Origin: Sedimentisphaerales bacterium
GTDB taxonomy: Bacteria > Planctomycetota > Phycisphaerae > Sedimentisphaerales > Anaerobacaceae
Length of the DNA stretch: 64,000 nt
Reading direction: 5' to 3'
Assembly (NCBI GenBank): GCA_963708075.1
Contig: OY970194.1
Location: 3,552,001-3,616,000 of the forward strand
Part shown: one piece after another, positions 5,962 to 36,473 of the stretch
Layout: each line of letters opens with the position of its first letter
Numbering within the stretch: position 1 is the stretch's first letter
Made by a program: the position numbers and the translations under genes
Notes under the pieces: model-generated
Database searches by the model: none
Seen by the model: the letters and a program-made list of their open reading frames with translations, nothing else
Told to the model about the DNA's origin: nothing

Positions 5962-6864
5962 ATGAAAGATAGGCAACAGTTCGAGTGCATTGGAGACGGC
6001 CTGCTGGTGCGGGCGCCCGCCAAGATCAATCTCAGCCTGCTGATCGCTGGCAAGCGCCCCGACGGCTACCACGAGCTGGAAACCATCATGGCCAAGATCG
6101 ACTGGTGCGACGAGCTGCTGATCCAGCCGGGCGAGCGGGCCGGGATCGAGCTGATTTGCCAGGGCCCCGAGTGGGCGCCGCAGAGCACAGACAACCTCGT
6201 GTACCGGGCGGCCGACCTTATCTTTCGCACGCGCGGAAAGGCCGACGACGTTCGTCTGACGCTCACCAAGAACGTCCCGGCCGGCACAGGATTGGGCTCC
6301 GCCAGCAGCGACGCCGCCGCCACGCTAGTGGGACTCAACAAGTACCTCGACCTCCGGTTGCCCGCCGAATCCCTCGCCGATATGGCGGCACAGCTCGGCA
6401 GCGATGTGGCGTTCTTCCTCAATGGGCCGCTGGCATTCTGCACCGGCAGGGGCGAGAAAATCGAAAAACTGCCTCACAGCTTCCCTTTCACCGCCCTGCT
6501 GATCTTGCCTTCCGTAAGTGTCTCCACGAAAGAAGTTTACGCACATTACGTCCACGATCCGGCTCTCTATGAGCAATGGCAGCGGCAGATTCACACGCAC
6601 ATGCGGAAGAACAGGCTTGATTTAGTCGCCAGGATGTGCGCAAATATGCTACGGAGAACCTGTTTTCATCTTTTTGAGGAACTTGGCAAACTCGAAGTAG
6701 CCATTGAATCGCTGGGCGCAGGGCCCATTTGCCTCAGTGGCAGTGGCTCTGCAATGTTCTGTATTCCGAGCGACCGGGGCATGGAGCACCTTGAAGAACT
6801 GCGGGACAAAATAACGGACAGCCTGGGCTGCAGAAGCATTATTGTGGGGAACAACAGGTGGTAG
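5962..6864 (+). CDS. ispE: 4-diphosphocytidyl-2-C-methyl-D-erythritol kinase
   Basis: Motifs [47 protein letters not shown]. Confidence 0.96.
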
Positions 6865-6883
6865 AGAGTTAGGCGAGGCGAGC

Positions 6884-7324
6884 ATGAGGATTACCGAGGT
6901 TCGCATCAAACTGGTGAAAAACAAGGATGATAAGCTGAAGGCATTCTGCTCCATGACACTCGATGGCGAGTTTGTGGTCCGCGACATCAAGATCATCGAA
7001 GGGGAAGGCGGGTACTTCGTGGCCATGCCGTCCCGCAAGATGAGCGACCACTGTGCCAAGTGCGGCTGCAAGAACCATCTGAGGGCGAAATTCTGCAACT
7101 ACTGCGGAGCCGCGCTACCCGAAAGCCGCGCCAAGAAGGATCTTCAGGGGCGGATGAGGCTGCACGCAGATATCGCCCACCCCATCAATGTCAACTGCAG
7201 GCGGTCCATCCAGCAAAAAGTGGTCGCCGCGTTCAAGGAAGAACTGAGAAAGTCCACGCTGCCGGGCTACAAGCCTCCGGAGTGGGACGAACCTGACGAC
7301 GAAATCCCCGAAATCGTCTCGTAG
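6884..7324 (+). CDS. spoVG: SpoVG-family nucleic-acid-binding protein with zinc-ribbon insertion
   Basis: [25 protein letters not shown] and DIAHPIN motifs, with an inserted CAKC...CNYC. Confidence 0.92.
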
Positions 7325-7440
7325 AATTGTCAGGGGCGAAAAACGCCGGCATGAGGTTTCTGAGCCTCGGCGATGCGTAGATTCTGCGGGATTTCACAGT
7401 GCCCGAGCAGCGGAAGGCCCAAGCCCGGAGAGGGCCCGGT

Positions 7441-25124: not shown

Positions 25125-27152
25125 GGCCACGGATAAACGGAGAGCCGGTGGCCCGCCACATCATACCTGCCGGCGCAGTGAGAACCGCCGAAACACTTGA
25201 CGGTCATCGGATACGATGGGCTTTGGCCCATATGGACTCTGGACAAGGGGGTGGAGGACAGAAGCATGACGGTGGAGCGGAATCGGTGCGTCCTGGGGAT
25301 AGTCCCTTTACTGGTCACAATATGCCTGGTGAGTCTCCCTGCGTACGCCAAATACAGATACAGCGGCGGGACGGGAGAGCCGAACGACCCGTACCAGATC
25401 GCCACGCCCGCTGATCTGATCGCCGTCGGTGAGACTTCCGAAGACTACGGCAAGCACTTCATCCTGACCGCCGACATCGACCTCGACCCGAACCTCCCCG
25501 GCCGCCAGGCGTTCAACCGGGCCGTGATCGCACCGGACATGAACGACGCAGCGATAGGCTTCCAGGGCCCTGCCTTCACGGGCACGCTCGATGGCCAGGG
25601 CCACGCTATCGCGGGTCTGGTTATCGACTCGAACGTCCCTTACGCCGGGCTATTCGGCGCGATCGGCAGTCGCGGATGTGTGTGCAATGTACACATAGTC
25701 GGTGGCTCAGTACGCGGCTATGCATTCTACTCCAAAACTAGCGACGGCGGCCTGCTTATGGATGGTGGCACGGGCAGTCTGGCAGGTGTCAATCAAGGTC
25801 TGATCAAAGCTTGCTGGAGCACAGGATTGGTCAACGGCAACGGTCGTGTCGGTGGCCTGGCAGGCTGGAACTTCTGTGGTACGATCATGGCCTGCTTGAG
25901 CACGAGCTCAGTCAGTGGTAATAGTGAGGTCGGGGGCTTGGTGGGGTCCAACAACTATGGCGTGATCTTGGCCTGCTACAATACTGGCCCAGTCAGTGGC
26001 AAGGACAATGTCGGCGGCTTGGTGGGGGATCATTTCTTTGGCACGGTCTTATCCTGCTACAGCACAGGCTCAGTCCGCGGAACCACGTATATCGGCGGTT
26101 TGGTGGGGTGCAACAGCAGCGCCGTGATCGCCGAGTGCTATAGCGTGGGCTCGGTCAGGGGAAACGACGACGTCGGGGGCTTGGTGGGGCGTGATTTCTT
26201 CGGTGCGACGTCGGCCTGCTTCTGGGATGTCGAGACCTCCGGCCAATCCAAAAGCCCAGGTGGTACGGGTCTGACGACCGCCCAGATGGCGGCTGTGCGG
26301 ACCTTTACGGATGTCGGCTGGGACTTCCTGGGCGAAAGGGCGAATGGCTTGAGTGAGTACTGGCAGATGCCAGCCGGGAGTGGGTATCCTGTGCTGAGCA
26401 TCTTCAATGACCACGTCCCTCATTCCTTTCAGGGAAGGGGGACCTCGGATGCCCCATACCTCATAGAGGCGGCTGAGGATCTGGGGGCGATGTGGTACCA
26501 CCCGATGGCCTCATATCGACTCGTGGCAGACGTGGACCTGTCCGGGACGAAGTGGGGCATGGGTGTCATACCTGCGTTTTGGGGGAGCCTGGACGGACAG
26601 GGACATCGGATTACGAGAATGACGATCGCAGGTGGTGGATACCTCGGACTGATCGGTCTGCTCTTTTCGGGTGCGGTGATCAAAGACCTTGGCCTTGAGG
26701 ATGTGAACAACGTTGGTACGAGCGATCAGGTTGGCGCGTTAGTTGGGTATGATCTCTGGGCTACGATCTCGGCCTGTCACACCACAGGATCGGTCCGCGG
26801 GAGGGATTGTGTTGGCGGACTGACCGGGACCTGCTACTTCGGCGTGATCTCAAATTGCCGCAGCGAGGCCTCCGTCTGCGGTACGCGTGAGTTCTCCGGC
26901 GGTTTGGTGGGGTTCAGCTACTACGGCACGATCTTGTCCTGCTATACCACGGGCCCGGTCAGCGGTAACGACTACGTCGGTGGCTTGGTGGGATACAACG
27001 GCAATGGTGCGCTCTCGGCATGTTACAGCACAGGCAAGATTGTCGGAACAGGCTCGTGCGTGGGTGGCCTGGCAGGGGACAACGGCTCGGGCACTATCTC
27101 GGCTTGTTGCAGCACGGGCCCGGTTGATGGCGTCCGCTTAGTCGGTGGTCTA

Positions 27153-28298
27153 AGTAGGTAGCCAAAAGTCTTCACACAAAAGCCTTGAGCCAGAAATCCG
27201 CCGACAAGACACCGGCTTTGCGGAGGCCCTGGGTCGCAGTTAGTCCCAAGAGCCACTGTTCCGCGTAGGCCGCCTCATCATCAATCGTTTGGAACTGGCG
27301 ATTGGCCGCAATCAACCGTTTCAACTCCTTCCAGAGATGATCCTGAGAGTTCAGTTCCGGGCACTGCTTCGGCAACCACAAGAGGGTCACCTCCAAGTGG
27401 GTGGCCAGTCGTTGGCTTTTGATCGCCTGATGAAAAGAGGCCTTGTCCAGCAACAGCCAAATCGGGCGTCCGGGATACCGTCGCCGCAACTCCCGCAGGA
27501 AGGCTTGAAAGTCCTCTTGCCGCTGGCGGGGCCGACGCAGGACCACCCGGTGTCCGGTTCGTGGATTGATCGTGCCGAACAGAACCCGTTTGTCGTTTTG
27601 CCCCGTGATCTTGACCTGCGCCTGTTCGCCGCGAAACGCCCACACATAGCGCAAGGGCGGAAACCAGCGGAGGATGGTCGCATCCGAAAACAACAGCACC
27701 GCCAGCGCCGGCATCCGTTTCAGGCGGCGAACCAGGCCCCCTTTTTCTGGGCTCGGTTCGGGTCCTTGGTCGCATAGACATACCGGGGACGTTTCCACCG
27801 CAGATCCAAGTCCCGCATCCGCCGCCGCAGGGTACGAGGCGAGATTGCACACCCGTACCTTTGCTGGAGGTGATCTGCCAGCAAGGACACCGTCCAACCC
27901 GTGGCGCGATAGCCCAAACGCATCGGGTCCCGGCGGAACTCGCGTACCAGACGGGCGTCCGTGATCGGCGTGGCGACCGGAGGCCGTCCGGAACGCGGTG
28001 CGTCCTGCAGGCGGTCTGGACAATGGGTGTGCAGATAGGCCCGCACCCAGCGATAGACGCTCCACGGCCGGGTCCCGGTGATCTGCGCTGCTTCCGGAAC
28101 CGTCCGACCCTGGGCCACCAACAGGATCGCTCCGATACGCCGGTAGGTGCGAATGTCAGCGACCCCCTGTAAGGCCCGCGTAAGACGATGTTTATCATAT
28201 CGATCGAAACCACGTTCTGAGGCGCTCTTCGTTCTTCGCATGTACCCCATCATACACGCGAAGAGAATCGTTCCTGTGAAAACTTTTGGCTACCTACT
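27153..28298 (-). mobile_element. Intact IS630-family insertion sequence
   Basis: 24-bp terminal inverted repeats AGTAGGTAGCCAAAAGT(C/T)TTCACA with one mismatch; TA duplicated at 27151-52 and 28299-300; CTAG target. Confidence 0.96.
27172..28253 (-). CDS. IS630 transposase, two ORFs joined by a probable -1 frameshift
   Basis: ORF A carries the HTH (27720-28253) and ORF B the DDE domain (FSDAT, LLDKASFH, LPKQCPELNSQDHLW). AAAAAGGGGG run at 27737-27746. Confidence 0.88.
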
Positions 28299-29566
28299 TA
28301 GCAGGGGCAAACACCGGCGGTACGATCTCAGCCTGTTACAGCACAGGTTCGGTCAGCAGCAAGGACTACGCCGGTGGTTTGGTCGGATTCAACTACAGCG
28401 GCTCGATCTCAGGTTGCTACAGCACAGGATGGGTTAGCAGAAGCAACGATGTCGGCGGCTTGGCGGGGAGCTCCGACAACAAGATCTCAGCCTGCTTCTG
28501 GGACACCCAGACCTCCGGCCAGACCAGCAGTGCAGGCGGCACTGGCAAAACGACAGCCCAGATGCAGACAGCTAAGACGTTCGTCGACGCCAGATGGGAC
28601 TTCGTGGGCGAGACGAGCAATGGGACGGAGGATGTCTGGTGGATCTTCGAAGGGAAGGACTATCCGCATCTGTGGTGGGAGCGGGTGCTGGGGGATGACT
28701 TCCAGGATGGTGAGCCGGGGTCACTGTGGCTGGAGTATGTGCCGGATGCGAGCAAGATATCGGTGAAGGAGACGAACGGCCGGCTGGAGGTCTATGCCTC
28801 GGCCCTGGCGGACGATATCGACGCGGTGTACGTCTCCAACGGCTGGCGGCTGGATGTCAGCAAGGATTTCGCCCTGCGGGTCGATTTCCACTACAGCAAG
28901 CGAGACCCCGGCGATAGTTGGGTGATGGTTGCGCTGTTGCCGAGCGTACAGATACCCGTCAGCCGGATCATCACCTTCGAGGCCGGCTGCATGAATGACG
29001 AGCCGTTCTACCTCTACGAGGCCATCGACGGCTTCTGGAGACACGAAGAAACCTCGTACCGCGCCCCCGATGAAGGCACGTTGTACGTGTCGTACGACGC
29101 TGCCACCGATGAGATGTATCTGAGCTACAAGGGCTACGGCAAGGCGAACGCGTGGCGAACGGTCGCGGGGCTGCTGGGGGGCAGGTGGCAAGGGGAGCCC
29201 GTCTATGTGGCGATTGGCGGCGGCTCCGATGGGGTCGTGCTGGAGCCCGGCGACGCCTGGCTGGACGATCTCACCGTAAACTCGGGCACGCTCGCTCCAT
29301 CCGACTCAGGCGACGAAAGCACCCCCGAAAGTGAAGAGTCGGACTTCGAATCCGACTAGGCGGCGACTGCCGCAAGCCATGGCGGGCACGGACGTTACGG
29401 CGGCCAGGTAGACAGGGATCGGCGTCGGCGTCCGCAAGTCCCTGCGGGAAAAGGGGTTAGGTCTTGCGCGGGAGCGTCCGTCGCGTTCGGGGGCAGTGCA
29501 TCAGGGCTCGCGGTATTTGTCAGGCCCTTGGGCGGAAAACCGAACAAATCCTGTGAAAAAATGCTA

Positions 29567-29594
29567 TTGAAATGTGTGCGCCTTGTGGTAAACT
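29567..29594 (+). promoter_or_regulatory. Putative sigma70 promoter of rpmE-prfA
   Basis: TTGAAA-N16-TAAACT with an extended TGn. Confidence 0.45.
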
Positions 29595-29864: not shown

Positions 29865-29927
29865 CTTCGCAGGTCACGTGAGAACGAGCTCCTGTTCCCG
29901 TCATGGCGGGTGCAGGGGCTCTTTGTT

Positions 29928-31052
29928 ATGGACAAAGAACAGAACAGCCTTTCGGCCATCCTCGATGGGATCGATGCCCGCTACGACGAGTTGGAGAAGC
30001 AGATTTCCGATCCGACCGTGGCCAGGGAGCATACCCGGCTCGTGGCGATCTCGAAAGAGCGGGGCAAGATCCGGCCTCTCGTCGAGAGATACCGCGAGTA
30101 CAAGGCGGTTGTCGCGGGGATCGGGGATGCCCGGCAGATGCTCGACGACCAGGCGTCGGATGCCGACCTCAAGGCCATGGCCGAGGAGGAGATCGAGCAA
30201 CTGACCGCCAAACGGGACCGGTTGCTGAACGACCTCCAAGACACGCTGATCATGGCCGACGACATGCACATCGGCTCGGTCATCATGGAAATCCGGGCCG
30301 GCACGGGCGGTGAGGAAGCGGCTTTGTTCGCGCGCGACCTCTACGAGATGTATGTCAAGTACGCCGGGAGCCGACGATGGCGGGTGGAACAGCTCGACTT
30401 TAGTCCTTCGGATATGGGAGGCTTTCGCGAGATCATCTTCAACATCAAGGGCGAAGGCGTGTGGGCGGAGCTGGGCTATGAGGGCGGCGGACACCGCGTC
30501 CAACGGGTGCCCGAGACCGAAGCGCAGGGCCGCATCCATACCTCCGCGGCTACCGTTGCCGTGCTGCCGGAGCCGGAGGAAGTGGATATCGAGATCAACC
30601 CGAGCGACGTGGTCGAGCACGTCAGCCGAGCCAGTGGGCCGGGCGGACAGAACGTCAATAAGGTCAGCAGCGCCATCCGACTTGAGCACGTCCCCACCGG
30701 CATTACGGTGAATATGCGGGAGGAGGCAAGCCAGCACAAGAATCGCGCCAAGGCATGGCGAATTCTCCGCAGCCGGATTTACGAGCTTTATGAGGGCAAG
30801 CGCCGGGCCGAGCGGGACTCGCAACGGAAAACGATGATCGGCTCCGGCGACCGGTCGGAAAAGATCCGAACGTACAACTTCCCTCAGAACCGCGTGACCG
30901 ACCATCGGATCGGCCTGTCGCTGTACAATCTCGACAGGATCATCAACGGGGACATGAGCGAGCTGATTGCAGGGCTGCGGGAACACGACCGGCAGCAGCG
31001 GCTGAAGAATCTCCAGCTTTCTCCGGGAGCGGGGGCATCGGCATCGAAGTGA
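29928..31052 (+). CDS. prfA: Peptide chain release factor 1
   Basis: [21 protein letters not shown] (PxT motif), [23 protein letters not shown]. Confidence 0.97.
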
Positions 31053-31239: not shown

Positions 31240-32352
31240 ATGATCGTCGTCGTTACAGGAATGGTGGGCCTCAACAAGAAGGAGTATCTTGAGAAGGTCT
31301 GCCGTTGTGCCCGACAGTATGGGGGCGAGGTGGGACTCTGCAACGTCGGCGACATGATGTACGCCGAGGCGCCGGACGTGACGCCGGGCAAAATCCTCGA
31401 CATCTCCCTGAAGCGGCTCCATTCCCTGCGCCGCAGCGTGTTCAAGGACATCATCGTGCGGGCCGGCCAAGTCCCCAACCTCATCGTCAATACGCACGCG
31501 ACATTCCGCTGGCGGCACGGGCTCTTTCCCGCCGTGGATTTCGACCAGATGCGACAGCTCAACGCGGACATGTACGTGTGCCTGATCGAGGGCGTCGTCC
31601 CCATGCACCTGCGCCTGCTGGAGCAGCACGCCCTCGAGCACGGCCTGAAGGACCTGATCGTATGGCGGGAAGAGGAGATCATCAGCACGGAGATGCTCTG
31701 CAAGGGCATCAACGACAAGATCCCCTTCTACTGTCTGGCCCGCGGCGGCAAGGAGGAGACGACGGATACGTTCTGCCGACTCATGTTCCGGAGGCATCTC
31801 AAGAAGGCGTATCTCAGCTTTCCCATGACGGCCGTGGCGCGAATCCCGGCCGTGACGGCCGAGATCGACGAATTCCGCCGCCGGATGAAGCGGTCCTTCA
31901 TCAGCTTCGACCCCGGCGACCTGGAGGAGGCCCACCTGCCCATCCTGGCCAGAGAGGCCCGCGAGCAGGGACTCGATTTCATCGAGGTGGCCGCCCTGAA
32001 TCAGCCGGCCCGACTGAGCGTCGATGAGGTCCTGCAGATCGAGCGTGACATCAACAGCCAGATCTACGCCCGCGACTTTCTGCTGATCGACCAGGCCGAC
32101 ATGATCATCAGTTTCGTGCCCGCCCTGCCCGACGGCAGAGCCGCGATCTCCAGCGGCGTCGAGCGCGAGCTCCAGCACGCCCACGAGGCCGCCAAAGAAG
32201 TCTACGTCATCTGGACCGCCCGCCAGGCCCCCTCCGTATTCGTCACCCAAACCGCCAGTAAGGTGTTCTCCAGCATCGATGAGGCGATGAAATTCTTCCA
32301 AACGCGCTACACCCCCGAAGAAATCTGCACGTCACGGAACGAGAGCACGTGA
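31240..32352 (+). CDS. Fusion of an archaeal-type adenylate kinase-like domain and an N-deoxyribosyltransferase/N-glycosidase-like domain
   Basis: N-terminal half: IVVVTGMVGLNKK, NVGDMM, IVNTHATF..HGLFP. C-terminal half: AYLSFPM, FDP, RDFLLIDQAD, SSGVERELQHA. Confidence 0.72.
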   Translation: MIVVVTGMVGLNKKEYLEKVCRCARQYGGEVGLCNVGDMMYAEAPDVTPGKILDISLKRLHSLRRSVFKDIIVRAGQVPNLIVNTHATFRWRHGLFPAVDFDQMRQLNADMYVCLIEGVVPMHLRLLEQHALEHGLKDLIVWREEEIISTEMLCKGINDKIPFYCLARGGKEETTDTFCRLMFRRHLKKAYLSFPMTAVARIPAVTAEIDEFRRRMKRSFISFDPGDLEEAHLPILAREAREQGLDFIEVAALNQPARLSVDEVLQIERDINSQIYARDFLLIDQADMIISFVPALPDGRAAISSGVERELQHAHEAAKEVYVIWTARQAPSVFVTQTASKVFSSIDEAMKFFQTRYTPEEICTSRNEST

Positions 32353-32423
32353 CGTAATGTCCACTCAATGGCTTGCTCCCCCGCACAACAAGCGTCGAAC
32401 CATCAACCAAGCGTGGCGCACTC

Positions 32424-33413
32424 TCATGTGAGCCCTACCTTCTGGATAAACTCGTCGATCTTCCCATCAAACCACCCGGATAGAGATTGATGTGGGCAGA
32501 TGGCGTCCACTCGCATATTCAATCCAGGGCACCGATCAAGTTGCTTGCGCCGGTCAGCGGCAAGACCTTCGGTCGTGCACCATACTTGGTGGCTCGCAAG
32601 CGATTCGAGCTTAAGTCTTCGGAGGTTCGTAGGGTGAAACCCAAATCCAAGTATGAAAACCTTTGACGACTCACCGAGCAGTCTCACGGCTTCTCCGATC
32701 TTGTCCGTCTCGTCCACACCCTCAGATATGATTTGAATATTGCCTGCGGCAACGGTAAGCAAATGCTTCTGGGCGAAAAGCGTGTCTACTTGAGTCTCAC
32801 GGAGTGCTTGCTCGCCAAAAGGAACGGGCTCACGTAGATGTGGAACATCAGTTGTCTTATCCTCCTCCTCCCATGGCAGACGGCCGAGCTTCCCATACAC
32901 ATGAATGATCTTGATCGCACGGAGCACCTCGCGGCATTCCTCTATACGCCTCCCTCGATGGCGTTTGTACAGGGCCGTGATGAGGTAATGCTCAAGTGAT
33001 CGATCATAGTTGAAGGTTATTATGGATAGCTTGTTCTCGGCAAGACCGTCAAATGGACAGTCGTCTGCCAACAGCGAAAACAATTGTCTATACCAGTTTT
33101 GCCCATACTCCTCGAACATTTGACGTTCGTTCTCCTTTGGAAGGAGTGCTGCCGCAATGGAAGACTTGCCTAAATCAAGGAATTCTCCGTTTTCCTTCTT
33201 CTCGAGGAAGGCGTCCACAGAGGGCGTACCAACGAGTCTGTCGGCAAACTCCTGTGAAAGCTCCCTTGGATAACGCTGCCGAACGCATTCAAAGAGACCT
33301 GAGCCATTCCTGAGGCCAGCGACGACATCGCGAACAAGCCCCTCTCCTGATGGGAAGTCGTAGGGGGCACTTGCACCAGCACCCAATACCAAGACTGTCT
33401 TCTCTGTGAACAT
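32424..33413 (-). CDS. SIR2-like domain protein, possible anti-phage NADase
   Basis: VLVLGAGAS..Y.FP.G, IITFNYD, IIHVYG, FILGFGF; visibly more AT-rich than its neighbours. Confidence 0.8.
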   Translation of the reverse strand: MFTEKTVLVLGAGASAPYDFPSGEGLVRDVVAGLRNGSGLFECVRQRYPRELSQEFADRLVGTPSVDAFLEKKENGEFLDLGKSSIAAALLPKENERQMFEEYGQNWYRQLFSLLADDCPFDGLAENKLSIITFNYDRSLEHYLITALYKRHRGRRIEECREVLRAIKIIHVYGKLGRLPWEEEDKTTDVPHLREPVPFGEQALRETQVDTLFAQKHLLTVAAGNIQIISEGVDETDKIGEAVRLLGESSKVFILGFGFHPTNLRRLKLESLASHQVWCTTEGLAADRRKQLDRCPGLNMRVDAICPHQSLSGWFDGKIDEFIQKVGLT

Positions 33414-33576
33414 CCTTTACATTGTACCATAGGAGCTCTACCACCGAAACAACCTGTGAGTCACAAGGCTATATGCCTCTTGCTAGTGCCCTGCCAGCAT
33501 TGTATCTTTATGATTGCGAAGGACAGTGACTGACCTAAGGGATGCTTCTGGCGGCGCTACGGTCCAGGAATATGAT

Positions 33577-33918
33577 ATGATCGAAGTCAGAGAGTCAGTG
33601 ACACAGCAGATCCAACAGATGGTCCGGCGAATTGCAGTGGAGTTCGACCCGGACCAGATCATCCTTTTTGGCTCGCATGCTCGCGGTGAGGCAGGGCCGG
33701 ATAGCGACGTGGACCTGCTTGTTGTGATGTCGGTGAAAGGTTCGAAAAGGGCTAAACAGCTTGAGATCAGGACTGCGGTGCGAGATGTCCATGTCCCCAA
33801 GGATATCATCGTCAGCAGGACCGAGGAATTCCAGTGGCGCAAAGACACCGTGGGCACGATTGAATACCCCGCCTCGCATGAAGGGAAAGTTGTGTATGCC
33901 CGAGGAATTCGTCAGTGA
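33577..33918 (+). CDS. Minimal nucleotidyltransferase (MNT family)
   Basis: ILFGSHARGEAGPDSDVDLLVV motif in a 113-aa protein. Confidence 0.9.
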   Translation: MIEVRESVTQQIQQMVRRIAVEFDPDQIILFGSHARGEAGPDSDVDLLVVMSVKGSKRAKQLEIRTAVRDVHVPKDIIVSRTEEFQWRKDTVGTIEYPASHEGKVVYARGIRQ

Positions 33919-34234
33919 GGCGATCAAGCCGGTGGCGGGGACGTTCGATACGGCTAGCATGACGCGGGGCGAGCCGGGACTGCCGCAGCGATTTGTATGG
34001 AGAGACAGGGAGTACACCCTTGCGGCCGTGCTACAGGCGTGGAAGGAAGACGGGCCCTGCAAACATGGCAGCGGCGAGATGTACCTTCGCAAGCACTGGT
34101 TCAGGATTCTGACCGAGCAAGGGCCGCAAATGACGATCTATTTCGAACGGCAGGCACGATCGAAGCAGCAGAGCAAAGCGCGATGGTGGCTCTATACAGT
34201 CGACAGAGAGTCAGGTTCGGCTGCGGCCGACTGA
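33896..34234 (+). CDS. Small conserved protein (DUF6504-like)
   Basis: GEPGLPQRFVWR..EY...W...YLRKHWF...WWLY; overlaps the MNT stop codon. Confidence 0.6.
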   Translation: MPEEFVSEAIKPVAGTFDTASMTRGEPGLPQRFVWRDREYTLAAVLQAWKEDGPCKHGSGEMYLRKHWFRILTEQGPQMTIYFERQARSKQQSKARWWLYTVDRESGSAAAD

Positions 34235-34313
34235 GGCTTGCGATGGCGATGGCAATAGCGTACCATGACGATGCCGAGGAACACATGGCTGTCTGAATGG
34301 AAAGTTCTCTCTT

Positions 34314-35013
34314 ATGACACTGGAACCAGCAACGACTGGAACAGACATAGCACAATACATCGACCACACGCTGCTGAAGGCGGAGGCGACGCACGAGGAG
34401 ATTCTGCGGGTGTGCGATGAGGCACAGGCGTGGGGATTTCATACGGTGTGCGTCAACGGGCGATGGGTGTCGCTGGTCGCGGAACGATTGTATGGCACGA
34501 AGGTGAAGACCGCGGGCGTGGTGAGTCTGCCGCTTGGTGCCGACACCACCAAAGTCAAGATCGCAGGGGCAAGGGAGGCGATTGACGCCGGGGCCGATGA
34601 GATCGATATGGTCGCTGATCTGGCGGCCATTATCGAAGGCGACGCCAAGTACCTGCTGCACCAGGTTCGGTCGGTGCTGAGGGAATGCCGGTCCATGAGA
34701 ACCTGCCGTGCTGCTGAAAGTCATTATTGAGTCGGCGGCCCTGACCCGGGAGCAAAAGATCTTCGCCTGCCAGATTGCCCAGCAGGCCGGCGTGGATTTC
34801 ATCAAGACCAGCACGGGGCTGCACCCGGCGGGAGGGGCCACGGTGGAGGACGTCCGGCTGATCAGGGAGACAGCGCCAACCTGCAAGGTGAAGGCCTCGG
34901 GCGGAATCAAGACTGCCCGGCAGGCCCTGGCGATGCTGGAGGCCGGAGCCGATCGCATCGGCACCTCCGCCGGCGTCCAAATCATGGAAGAGCTTACAGC
35001 GACGAGGAAATGA
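34314..35013 (+). CDS. deoC: Deoxyribose-phosphate aldolase, frameshifted at about 34700
   Basis: [41 protein letters not shown]. Removing one A at 34700/34701 gives [14 protein letters not shown]. Confidence 0.92.
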
Positions 35014-36473
35014 TGGCAGGTGAAAGGGACTGCGCCTGCAGAATCCACTACAAGAGAATCCGTGCGGACACAAGCCTGGGGGCGTTAACTGAGGTCATCG
35101 CAGCGCTGCCGTTGCCCGCCATCCTCGGGGGCAATCCAGCCAAGATCGATGAAGATGGATTCAGTTACTGGGCCGCCGAGCCGAGAGAAGTATTTGAATT
35201 CAAGGCCGGCCAAAGCAACCCATTTTCAAAACTTCAGGGAATCCTGGGCAAATACACGCTCACCGATGGCCCGGCCGTCAGCTATAACCAGGCAGAAGAT
35301 CAGATGGCGGGGTCGCCGTTGCCTGACGGGATGTTCTGCGGCGGCTGGATCGGGCATTTCAGCTACGAACTGGGCCGATACATCGAGCGTTTGCCCGAGA
35401 AAGCCGTTGATGACCTTCGAATTCCTCTCGTCCGATTGTGTTTCTACGACCGGGCAATCGCATACGACCATCGCTCCAGCGTCTTCTGGCTCGTGGCCCT
35501 GGAGTTGCCCGATGACTCTGAGAGGCCCAAGGAGAAGATCGCCACCCTCGAATATCGCATGGATCGGTCACGACAGATACACCTGACGGAGCCCCCCGCC
35601 GCAGACATGGAGACGATTGACTTCGCCGATGTTCGGCGCAATATGACGCGGGATGCCTACCTGGATGCCGTACGACGGATCAAGCGCTACATCTGCGACG
35701 GGGACATCTACCAGGCGAACTTCTCCCATCGCTTCGAGCAGCCATTCAGGGGCAGGCCCGTTCAGTTGTTTCATTGGCAAAATCACTATAATCCCAGTGG
35801 CTACGCAGCCTATCTTGATGCCGGCGACTTTCAGATCGTCAGCGCCTCGCCGGAGATGTTCATCACGATTCACGACCGCATGATCCGAACGAAGCCAATC
35901 AAAGGGACACGCCCGCGAATCAACGCCTCCGATGAGCAGGCGGTGAAGCTCAACGCCGAGCGATTCAATGAGCTGCTGACCAGTGAAAAAGAGCAGGCGG
36001 AACTCAACATGATCATCGACCTGGAACGCAACGACGTGGCCAGGATCTGCAAGCCCGGCACACGCCGCGTCATTCAGCCGAGGACGATTGAGACCTATCC
36101 CACCGTGTTTCATGCCGTCGCCACCGTCGGTGGCGAACTGCGCAGCGACGTCACGTTCAGCGATGTCCTGCGGGCCATGTTCCCCGGCGGCTCGATCACC
36201 GGGGCGCCGAAGATCCGCTCCATGGAGATCATCGACGAGCTGGAGCCTACGGCCAGAAGCGTCTATACCGGCGCGATCGGCTTCATCGGCCTCGACGGAA
36301 CTGTCTGCTTGAATATCGCCATCCGAACCGCTATCATCACGAACGGCAACGCCTTTGTGCAAACGGGAGGCGGGATTGTCGCCGACTCCGATCCACAGGC
36401 CGAGTGGGACGAGACGATCACAAAGGCCAGGGCACTTGTGGCCGGCATCAAGGCGGTGGAGAACATGGAATGA
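35010..36473 (+). CDS. pabB: Aminodeoxychorismate synthase component I
   Basis: GDIYQAN, SASPE, PIKGT (PabB-type), [20 protein letters not shown]. Confidence 0.92.

Follow-up and report, generated by a model that had tools for sequence, protein, structure and literature searches.

The fusion gene and its neighborhood

The window, a stretch of 64,000 nucleotides from a Sedimentisphaerales bacterium (contig OY970194.1, positions 3,552,001 to 3,616,000), carried at 31240..32352 on the forward strand a gene for a protein of 370 aa in which an archaeal AdkA-like domain was joined to a domain of the DNPH1/N-deoxyribosyltransferase (NDT) fold. The sequence-only reading of this DNA had described AdkA motifs with a non-canonical P-loop in the N-terminal half and NDT-fold motifs in the C-terminal half, and all of the quoted motifs (VVVTGMVGLNKK, NTHAT...GLFP, YLSFP, RDFLLIDQAD, and SSGVERE) were found in this open reading frame (ORF). 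The AlphaFold2 model of the fusion, based on 84 diverse homologues, had a mean pLDDT of 95.3, and its comparison with solved structures confirmed the two predicted domains, an archaeal AdkA fold followed by an NDT/DNPH1 fold, as the sequence-only reading had proposed. The whole protein matched AAA_17 of Pfam at 2.8e-5, which was below the cut-off. Among 8000 candidates scored, 5228 were homologues of the fusion, and they formed 768 clusters at 50% identity. Databases labelled the fusion "adenylate kinase" or "AAA ATPase," which we regard as mislabelling. A search of the open-licence literature found no paper on this fusion.

The gene was preceded by prfA (29910..31052, forward strand), the upstream anchor of an operon in the order of rpmE-prfA-fusion-deoC-pabB-ilvE-nif3-scpB in Sedimentisphaerales. 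It was followed by a SIR2-like ORF (32424..33413, reverse strand), an MNT-type nucleotidyltransferase gene (33571..33918, forward; PF01909), a DUF6504 gene (33896..34234, forward) that in relatives usually comes after deoC, the deoxyribose-phosphate aldolase gene deoC (34314..35013, forward), and a pabB-like gene as the downstream anchor (35010..36473, forward). The start of deoC was 1,962 nt 3′ of the fusion on the same strand, with the SIR2-like, MNT, and DUF6504 genes between, which agreed with the earlier description of a co-oriented deoC about 2 kb downstream. In the window deoC was read as two ORFs, and TIGR00126 was matched on both pieces. The division was caused by one extra base at position 34700 relative to eight of the eight relatives shown. 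Because this base was missing from a near-identical contig of run X1 (one contig, depth 3.5), the split is probably a sequencing error. A second, intact deoC was located elsewhere in the source genome (G000:C1:1064488-1065174).

The C-terminal half

The C-terminal domain spanned residues 186–358 (31795..32313, forward strand) and was delimited by fold match, by the PF05014 matches of homologues, and by conserved residues; in the full-length model, residues 185–358 matched the NDT fold. When folded alone, it was closest to the NDT 7o62 (Z 16.3, root-mean-square deviation [rmsd] 2.0, 130 aligned residues, Foldseek E 4e-6), followed by the NDT 6evs (Z 14.5), human DNPH1 8rpt (Z 14.4, rmsd 2.5, 129 aligned), and MilB (Z 12.3). 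At the level of sequence, the query C-half had no Pfam match, while 46 of the 84 aligned homologues matched PF05014 at E ≤ 0.05. A sequence-profile search of the C-half against the PDB gave no significant NDT match, and only the fold comparison gave one. Since the fold does not split transferases from hydrolases, active-site residues were used to decide between them.

The key residues, with the positions of their codons, were Y191 (31810), D279 (32074), S304 (32149), E310 (32167), and S332 (32233), placed by motif spacing against the DNPH1 numbering (PMC10603095). In the 84 homologues, Y191 was conserved in 84, D279 in 82, and E310 in 83, so that the catalytic Tyr/Asp/Glu of the NDT superfamily was retained; R278 was found in 78, S304 in 77, G306 in 83, and S332 in 70. 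None of Y191, D279, S304, E310, and S332 varied among 117 homologues of the archaeal clade or among 119 close homologues. In DNPH1, as its structural study describes the site, Y24, D80, and E104 are catalytic and the phosphate is bound by S98 and S128′ (PMC10603095). S304 lies six residues before the Glu, like S98 of DNPH1, and S332 lies 22 residues after it compared with 24 in DNPH1. Tyr or Phe at the first position is reported to set the choice between deoxyribose and ribose, and MilB, which has Phe, takes ribose (PMC10603095, PMC7308715); the family of the fusion had an invariant Tyr, as expected of a DNPH1/Rcl-type deoxyribose-selective enzyme. In the transferases, the 5′ pocket is described as containing Asp or Asn (PMC12884076), unlike the serines at the positions inferred here. 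The conserved Tyr together with serines placed like the phosphate-binding serines of DNPH1 thus points to a 2′-deoxy, 5′-monophosphate substrate, and the C-half is probably a deoxynucleoside monophosphate (dNMP) N-glycosidase.

Compared with known members of this fold, the fusion resembled DNPH1/Rcl (8rpt, 8qhq, 4kxl) in fold, in the Tyr/Asp/Glu triad, and in the spacing of both serines. However, the identity was only 16–17%, and the fusion differed in its AdkA-like domain, in a helix-hairpin insertion at residues 232–266, in having Thr or Ser at the position of DNPH1 R30, and in being prokaryotic and tied to deoC. The NDTs (PF05014; 7o62, 6evs, 1f8x) provided the best fold match and the same triad, but the fusion fell below any Pfam threshold and was fused to a second domain. 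MilB/BcmB, which are CMP N-glycosidases, and phage DmtZ are likewise NDT-fold monophosphate glycosidases, and DmtZ, which occurs alone or fused to DutZ, is a reported earlier case of such a fold joined to a second enzyme of nucleotide metabolism (PMC12884076). In contrast to them, the fusion was found without antibiotic or Z-DNA gene context, and its partner was kinase-like instead of a dNTP hydrolase.

The N-terminal half

The N-terminal domain comprised residues 1–185 (31240..31794, forward strand; degenerate P-loop at 31258–31281) and was recognized from fold, profile, and conservation. Its profile matched structures of archaeal adenylate kinases at 3.5e-16, and residues 1–185 aligned with Aeropyrum adenylate kinase 6ln3 over 183 residues (Z 23.3, rmsd 2.0). 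The model contained a nucleoside monophosphate (NMP) kinase fold with the predicted AdkA hairpin and trimerisation helix. Like AdkA (PRK04040; 6ln3, 1nks, 7owe), the fusion had the His of the TH motif, as well as the β-hairpin and long helix at the predicted interface. Its score against the NCBIfam family PRK04040 was only 24.7 bits (E 1.4e-5), below the cut-off of 155.

The P-loop read GMVGLNKK instead of the canonical GxxGxGK[ST]. In the 84 homologues, K/R13 was conserved in 80, H86 in 81, and R125 in 59, whereas the Gly preceding the P-loop Lys was replaced by Asp, Asn, or Glu in 54, and the Mg-binding Ser/Thr was kept in 14; Lys occupied that position in 116 of 119 close homologues. For OdinAK, the active-site residues are given as K13, R51, H85, R124, R134, and R137 (PMC9635829), and of these six only the equivalents of K13, H85, and R124 were retained (K13, H86, and R125 here). 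According to the alignments, the position of the NMP-lid residue R51 was taken by Pro49, and the lid segment 126–136 was shorter and had no Arg. Other residues were near-invariant, namely L53, R64, H86, F89-R90-W91, W142-R143, and E146. All of these except H86 are new relative to AdkA, which indicated strong selection on something other than AdkA function. The loss of the Mg-binding Thr and of several arginines suggested that the kinase half is probably a scaffold or sensor. Judged by sequence, a catalytic kinase is the less likely alternative, and we favor, with some reserve, a non-catalytic or sensor role.

In addition, adk, tmk, cmk, and gmk were each found in five of the five genomes tested, and the host had a canonical adk. 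This ruled out displacement of a canonical NMP kinase by the fusion.

In a two-copy model, the predicted self-association was 0.50 compared with 0.00 for the best control, with contacts agreeing in at least 92% and pLDDT of at least 87; of 30 solved pairs, 20 attain this mark, and of 23 single chains, one does. The predicted interface was made by the AdkA hairpin and the long helix (residues 87–97 and 137–159), and lid residues 56–59 appeared to contact NDT helices 273–280 and 313–317 of the other chain.

Distribution

The fusion was present in 234 of 251 Phycisphaerae genomes, almost always as a single copy. This class sample consisted of genomes at least 92% complete and included one unpublished genome (G626); three f108 matches were weak. 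The named relatives belonged to Phycisphaerae, and the closest to Sedimentisphaerales. It was found in 34 of 41 near relatives and in 31 of 401 genomes of the phylum, just three of these 31 lying outside the class. One planctomycete outside the class (G293) carried a divergent homologue with 23% identity (L050:4989-6092, reverse strand), and deoC and deoB stood side by side in its genome.

A distant clade comprised Thermofilum pendens, Thermoproteales, Bathyarchaeia, Conexivisphaerales, Brockarchaeota, and Nitrososphaerota, and another was found in Chloroflexota; T. pendens is a cultured carrier of a homologue. Searches of plasmids, phages, and IMG/VR, one of which finds close relatives only, gave no match, and a mobile or phage origin was rejected. 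The class-wide, mostly single-copy presence without plasmid or phage matches is a housekeeping pattern.

Linkage and co-occurrence with deoC

In Sedimentisphaerales, deoC lay within 1.5 kb of the fusion in 20 of 29 relatives, in the operon rpmE-prfA-fusion-deoC-pabB, and the gap was below 40 nt in several of them. Of 23 further loci with an identity of at least 58%, 18 had deoC within 2.7 kb. A second, distant clade, on the opposite side of the midpoint-rooted tree, again had deoC directly behind the fusion (L056, L101, and G479). For this tree the divergent L050 was left out, the own genus was thinned to four loci, and L212 was added after its adjacency had been seen; L212 was excluded from the adjacency count given below. 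In two genomes from two families (G034 and G035), prfA was followed directly by pabB, so that exactly the fusion and deoC were missing from an otherwise intact operon.

Co-occurrence was in line with this linkage. In the class sample, deoC was found in 219 of 251 genomes; it was absent from 10 of the 17 genomes without the fusion (six families) compared with 22 of the 234 with it. The corresponding odds ratio of 13.8 is too high, as related genomes are not independent cases. Among 79 selected genomes, deoC occurred in all 38 with the fusion, in none of seven genomes of the order without it, and in 13 of 34 other genomes of the phylum without it. Adjacency in two clades and co-absence support the link to deoC.

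Outside the order, no shared neighborhood was found, the largest common cluster comprising six of 77 loci, and 125 flanking ORFs that were scanned had mixed functions. The synteny with prfA (20 of the 23 loci with at least 58% identity, none of 77 more distant loci) was order-specific, and prfA was rejected as a functional link. The sequence-only reading had spoken of a "module," a word that overstates the case, since beyond Sedimentisphaerales the fusion mostly stands alone.

Other routes to deoxyribose 5-phosphate

No deoB was detected in 121 class genomes (41 + 80), while control genomes gave matches. The pyrimidine phosphorylase domain PF07831 of deoA/pdp was likewise found in none of 70 class genomes, again with matches in the control genomes. 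Genes of the PNP family occurred in 74 of 79 genomes. Those of the source genome appear to resemble MTAP and MTA/SAH nucleosidase.

Thymidine kinase and deoxynucleoside kinase matches were both lacking in 19 of 38 genomes with the fusion. All 19 genomes of the order that were tested had an own deoxynucleoside kinase, with or without the fusion. No clean pattern of complementarity between the fusion and these kinases emerged.

In other Phycisphaerae, genes of LOG-family nucleosidases were observed directly 3′ of the fusion at two loci of one clade (L107:7156-7740 and L129:7324-7914), and a dGTPase-like HD gene was observed in the same position at a third locus (L106:7191-8735).

Archaeal contexts

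In one archaeal group, the fusion was placed head-to-head with a gene for a helix-turn-helix/ATP-cone/partial NrdD-like protein at eight of nine loci, with a ribonucleotide reductase alongside at six of nine. One such locus (L145:1118-5735) carried both a ribonucleotide reductase with an ATP cone and the NrdD-like protein beside the fusion. At another locus of the archaeal clade, the fusion followed endonuclease III.

A complete, co-oriented ABC importer of the PnrA/Bmp type was observed directly upstream of one homologue (L198:1065-5934). A protein of 80–97 aa with a glutaredoxin fold and without CxxC was encoded divergently from the fusion (head-to-head) at 42 of 80 archaeal-clade loci, in 10 of 17 groups; examples among the loci L131–L210 are L153:5602-5865 and L158:5627-5878 (both reverse strand). 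Like the NrdD-like gene and the ribonucleotide reductase, these two contexts gave side hints of deoxynucleotide metabolism.

Other features of the window

The SIR2-like ORF was convergent with the fusion and belonged to a set of several paralogs carried by the genome. It matched SIR2 of PADLOC (E 2.9e-6) and had no Pfam match; its GC content was 0.52, compared with 0.60 for the genome. A homologue of it was found at none of 29 relatives, none of 100 further bacterial loci, and none of 80 archaeal-clade loci (0/209 in all). The MNT gene, a sporadic passenger, occurred at this site in two of 29 relatives and in one of 100 further loci. Both genes are local insertions, and the site holds variable passengers in relatives. 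Elsewhere in the source genome, a PF05014/TIR-like protein overlapped a SIR2-like paralog (L211:5592-6515 and 6512-7411; G000:C1 ~6900592-6902411) that was 36% identical to the SIR2-like ORF of the window. This separate pair of an NDT-fold and a SIR2 protein had a Thoeris-like layout, with PADLOC matches to the TIR effector (3e-11), ThsB (0.0016), and SIR2 (3e-7).

Further upstream, two overlapping transposase-like ORFs (27172–28253, reverse strand), as read from translations, interrupted a gene for a secreted protein (25197–27161 and 28286–29359). We take the former to be an IS630-type transposase pair and the latter to be a GLUG-repeat-like gene. A scan of the region for repeats and promoters gave nothing beyond chance except one promoter-like site at 29567–29594.

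Proposed function and its alternatives

The explanation that best accommodates both folds, the conserved residues, the distribution, and the linkage and co-absence with deoC is a housekeeping N-glycosidase of the DNPH1/Rcl type that would act on dNMPs and feed DeoC, with a kinase-derived domain as scaffold or sensor; we put its probability at about 0.55. In the proposed mechanism, E310 would attack C1′, D279 would protonate the leaving base, Y191 would select deoxyribose, and S304 and S332 would hold the 5′-phosphate. The products would be a free base, which would be salvaged, and 2-deoxyribose 5-phosphate, which DeoC would cleave to glyceraldehyde 3-phosphate and acetaldehyde, the usual products of that enzyme. 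A single step would thus stand in for deoA/deoD plus deoB. The AdkA-derived half would not be a working adenylate kinase; it would oligomerise the enzyme via the AdkA hairpin and helix, and its remodelled nucleotide pocket would have been kept, probably to gate the breakdown of dNMPs. Like the classical deo pathway (deoA/deoD, deoB, deoC), this route would end in DeoC, but it would enter at the level of dNMPs by hydrolysis. We propose that the fusion works like DNPH1 without being classed as a DNPH1 ortholog, and that it falls outside AdkA. The coupling to DeoC in Phycisphaerae is likely.

Several observations weigh against this explanation. The fold comparison ranked the transferase 7o62 first and did not separate NDT from DNPH1, and the equivalence of the serines was assigned from motif spacing without a residue-level superposition. 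Position 197, itself placed by its spacing from the Tyr, was Thr in 62 and Ser in 21 of 84 homologues instead of the Arg of DNPH1 (R30) or MilB (R23). Resemblance to AdkA trimers of known structure may account for the score of the dimer. In the homodimer of the DNPH1/Rcl enzymes, the C-terminal loop of one chain completes the active site of the other; the interface recovered here was not that of the usual NDT dimer, since the two-copy model was joined through the AdkA-like half. Archaeal members were less degenerate, keeping GxxGxGR (GISGSGR) and arginines in the lid region, and the alignments contained methanococcal adenylate kinases without the P-loop lysine, which leaves kinase catalysis some probability. 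With regard to deoC, the joint loss of neighboring genes can be a single physical deletion, and related genomes are not independent. Outside the order, 67 unbiased loci had sufficient flank, and deoC adjoined the fusion in only two of them; it was matched at none of the 80 archaeal-clade loci, counted at the level of the locus. Moreover, the 22 fusion-bearing genomes without a deoC match suggest, given a completeness of ~95%, an excess over what incompleteness alone would produce, and seven of the 17 genomes without the fusion had deoC. SAR11 is reported to have rcl without deoC (PMC12636525), so that an enzyme of this kind can exist uncoupled from DeoC. Genes of the phosphohexomutase family and LOG nucleosidases were each found in five of five genomes. 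Phosphohexomutases can act as phosphopentomutases, and together with the PNP-family genes these make another source of deoxyribose 5-phosphate possible. The bypass of phosphorylase and phosphopentomutase proposed by the sequence-only reading is supported by the active-site residues, by adjacency to deoC in two clades, by co-absence, and by the lack of detected deoB and deoA/pdp, but it is weakened by the presence of these three gene families.

The same chemistry might instead sanitise the nucleotide pool, with a modified or damaged dNMP as substrate and DeoC disposing of a by-product of small flux. DNPH1 itself is reported to have hmdUMP as its cellular substrate (PMC10603095), and retention of the fusion in genomes without deoC, its distance from deoC in the archaeal clade, and the archaeal neighbors named above (the NrdD-like gene, ribonucleotide reductase, and endonuclease III) would suit such a role. 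We nevertheless consider it unlikely, though with an appreciable chance, as the absence of the fusion together with deoC in six families and its position next to deoC in two clades agree with a supply role, and no modification or repair gene recurred among the neighbors. A phosphodeoxyribosyl-transferase that exchanges bases among dNMPs, to salvage them or to balance the pool, and for which hydrolysis is a side reaction, would agree with the best structural match of the C-half, and DmtZ, a natural NDT-fold enzyme, is described as both hydrolysing dAMP and transferring deoxyribose 5-phosphate (PMC12884076). However, it would make no free deoxyribose 5-phosphate and would thus leave the association with deoC unexplained, which makes it very improbable.

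A bifunctional enzyme, with an N-half that adds phosphate to deoxynucleosides or to some other acceptor and a C-half that splits the dNMP so formed to give deoxyribose 5-phosphate, would make use of the retained K/R13, H86, and R125; the methanococcal kinases indicate that AdkA-type sites tolerate change. The 19 fusion-bearing genomes without thymidine kinase and deoxynucleoside kinase matches and the archaeal-clade locus behind a PnrA-type importer would also suit it, and other kinase-NDT fusions, with scores of 0.81–0.86, are leads only. Yet the replaced Gly, the loss of the Mg-binding Ser/Thr, the lid segment without Arg, and the own deoxynucleoside kinase in all 19 tested genomes of the order leave it a rather small chance. 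As a further possibility, raised by the sequence-only reading, the fusion might generate or degrade a signal for the neighboring SIR2-like protein, here taken as a nucleotide signal in a defense module. Adjacency in this one genome, the separate pair of PF05014/TIR-like and SIR2-like genes, and a canonical sirtuin that follows one homologue (L054) are all that speak for it. Unlike SIR2-coupled, Thoeris-like defense systems, the fusion had no conserved SIR2 linkage; the SIR2-like gene was an antisense, low-GC insertion without a homologue at the other loci, and the fusion was class-wide, had no PADLOC match, and was missing from the plasmid, phage, and IMG/VR searches. By context, signaling to SIR2 is effectively refuted, and a partnership of the two proteins was ruled out.

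Returning to the N-glycosidase that would feed DeoC, its fullest form would be an undescribed route in Phycisphaerae, and perhaps in Thermofilales, Bathyarchaeia, and other archaea, in which a dNMP is split into base and deoxyribose 5-phosphate and the latter passes to DeoC. It would replace deoA/deoD/deoB and would be controlled by a dead AdkA domain that acts as an allosteric nucleotide sensor, its lid contacting glycosidase helices of the neighboring subunit. We put this forward tentatively. The chemistry itself is known; the fusion, its placement in the pathway, and the possible pseudokinase control would be new. If true, it would name the source of the DeoC substrate for a whole class without detected deoB and deoA/pdp, would give a function to a class-wide gene, and would provide an enzyme of the DNPH1 type from prokaryotes that carries its own candidate regulator.

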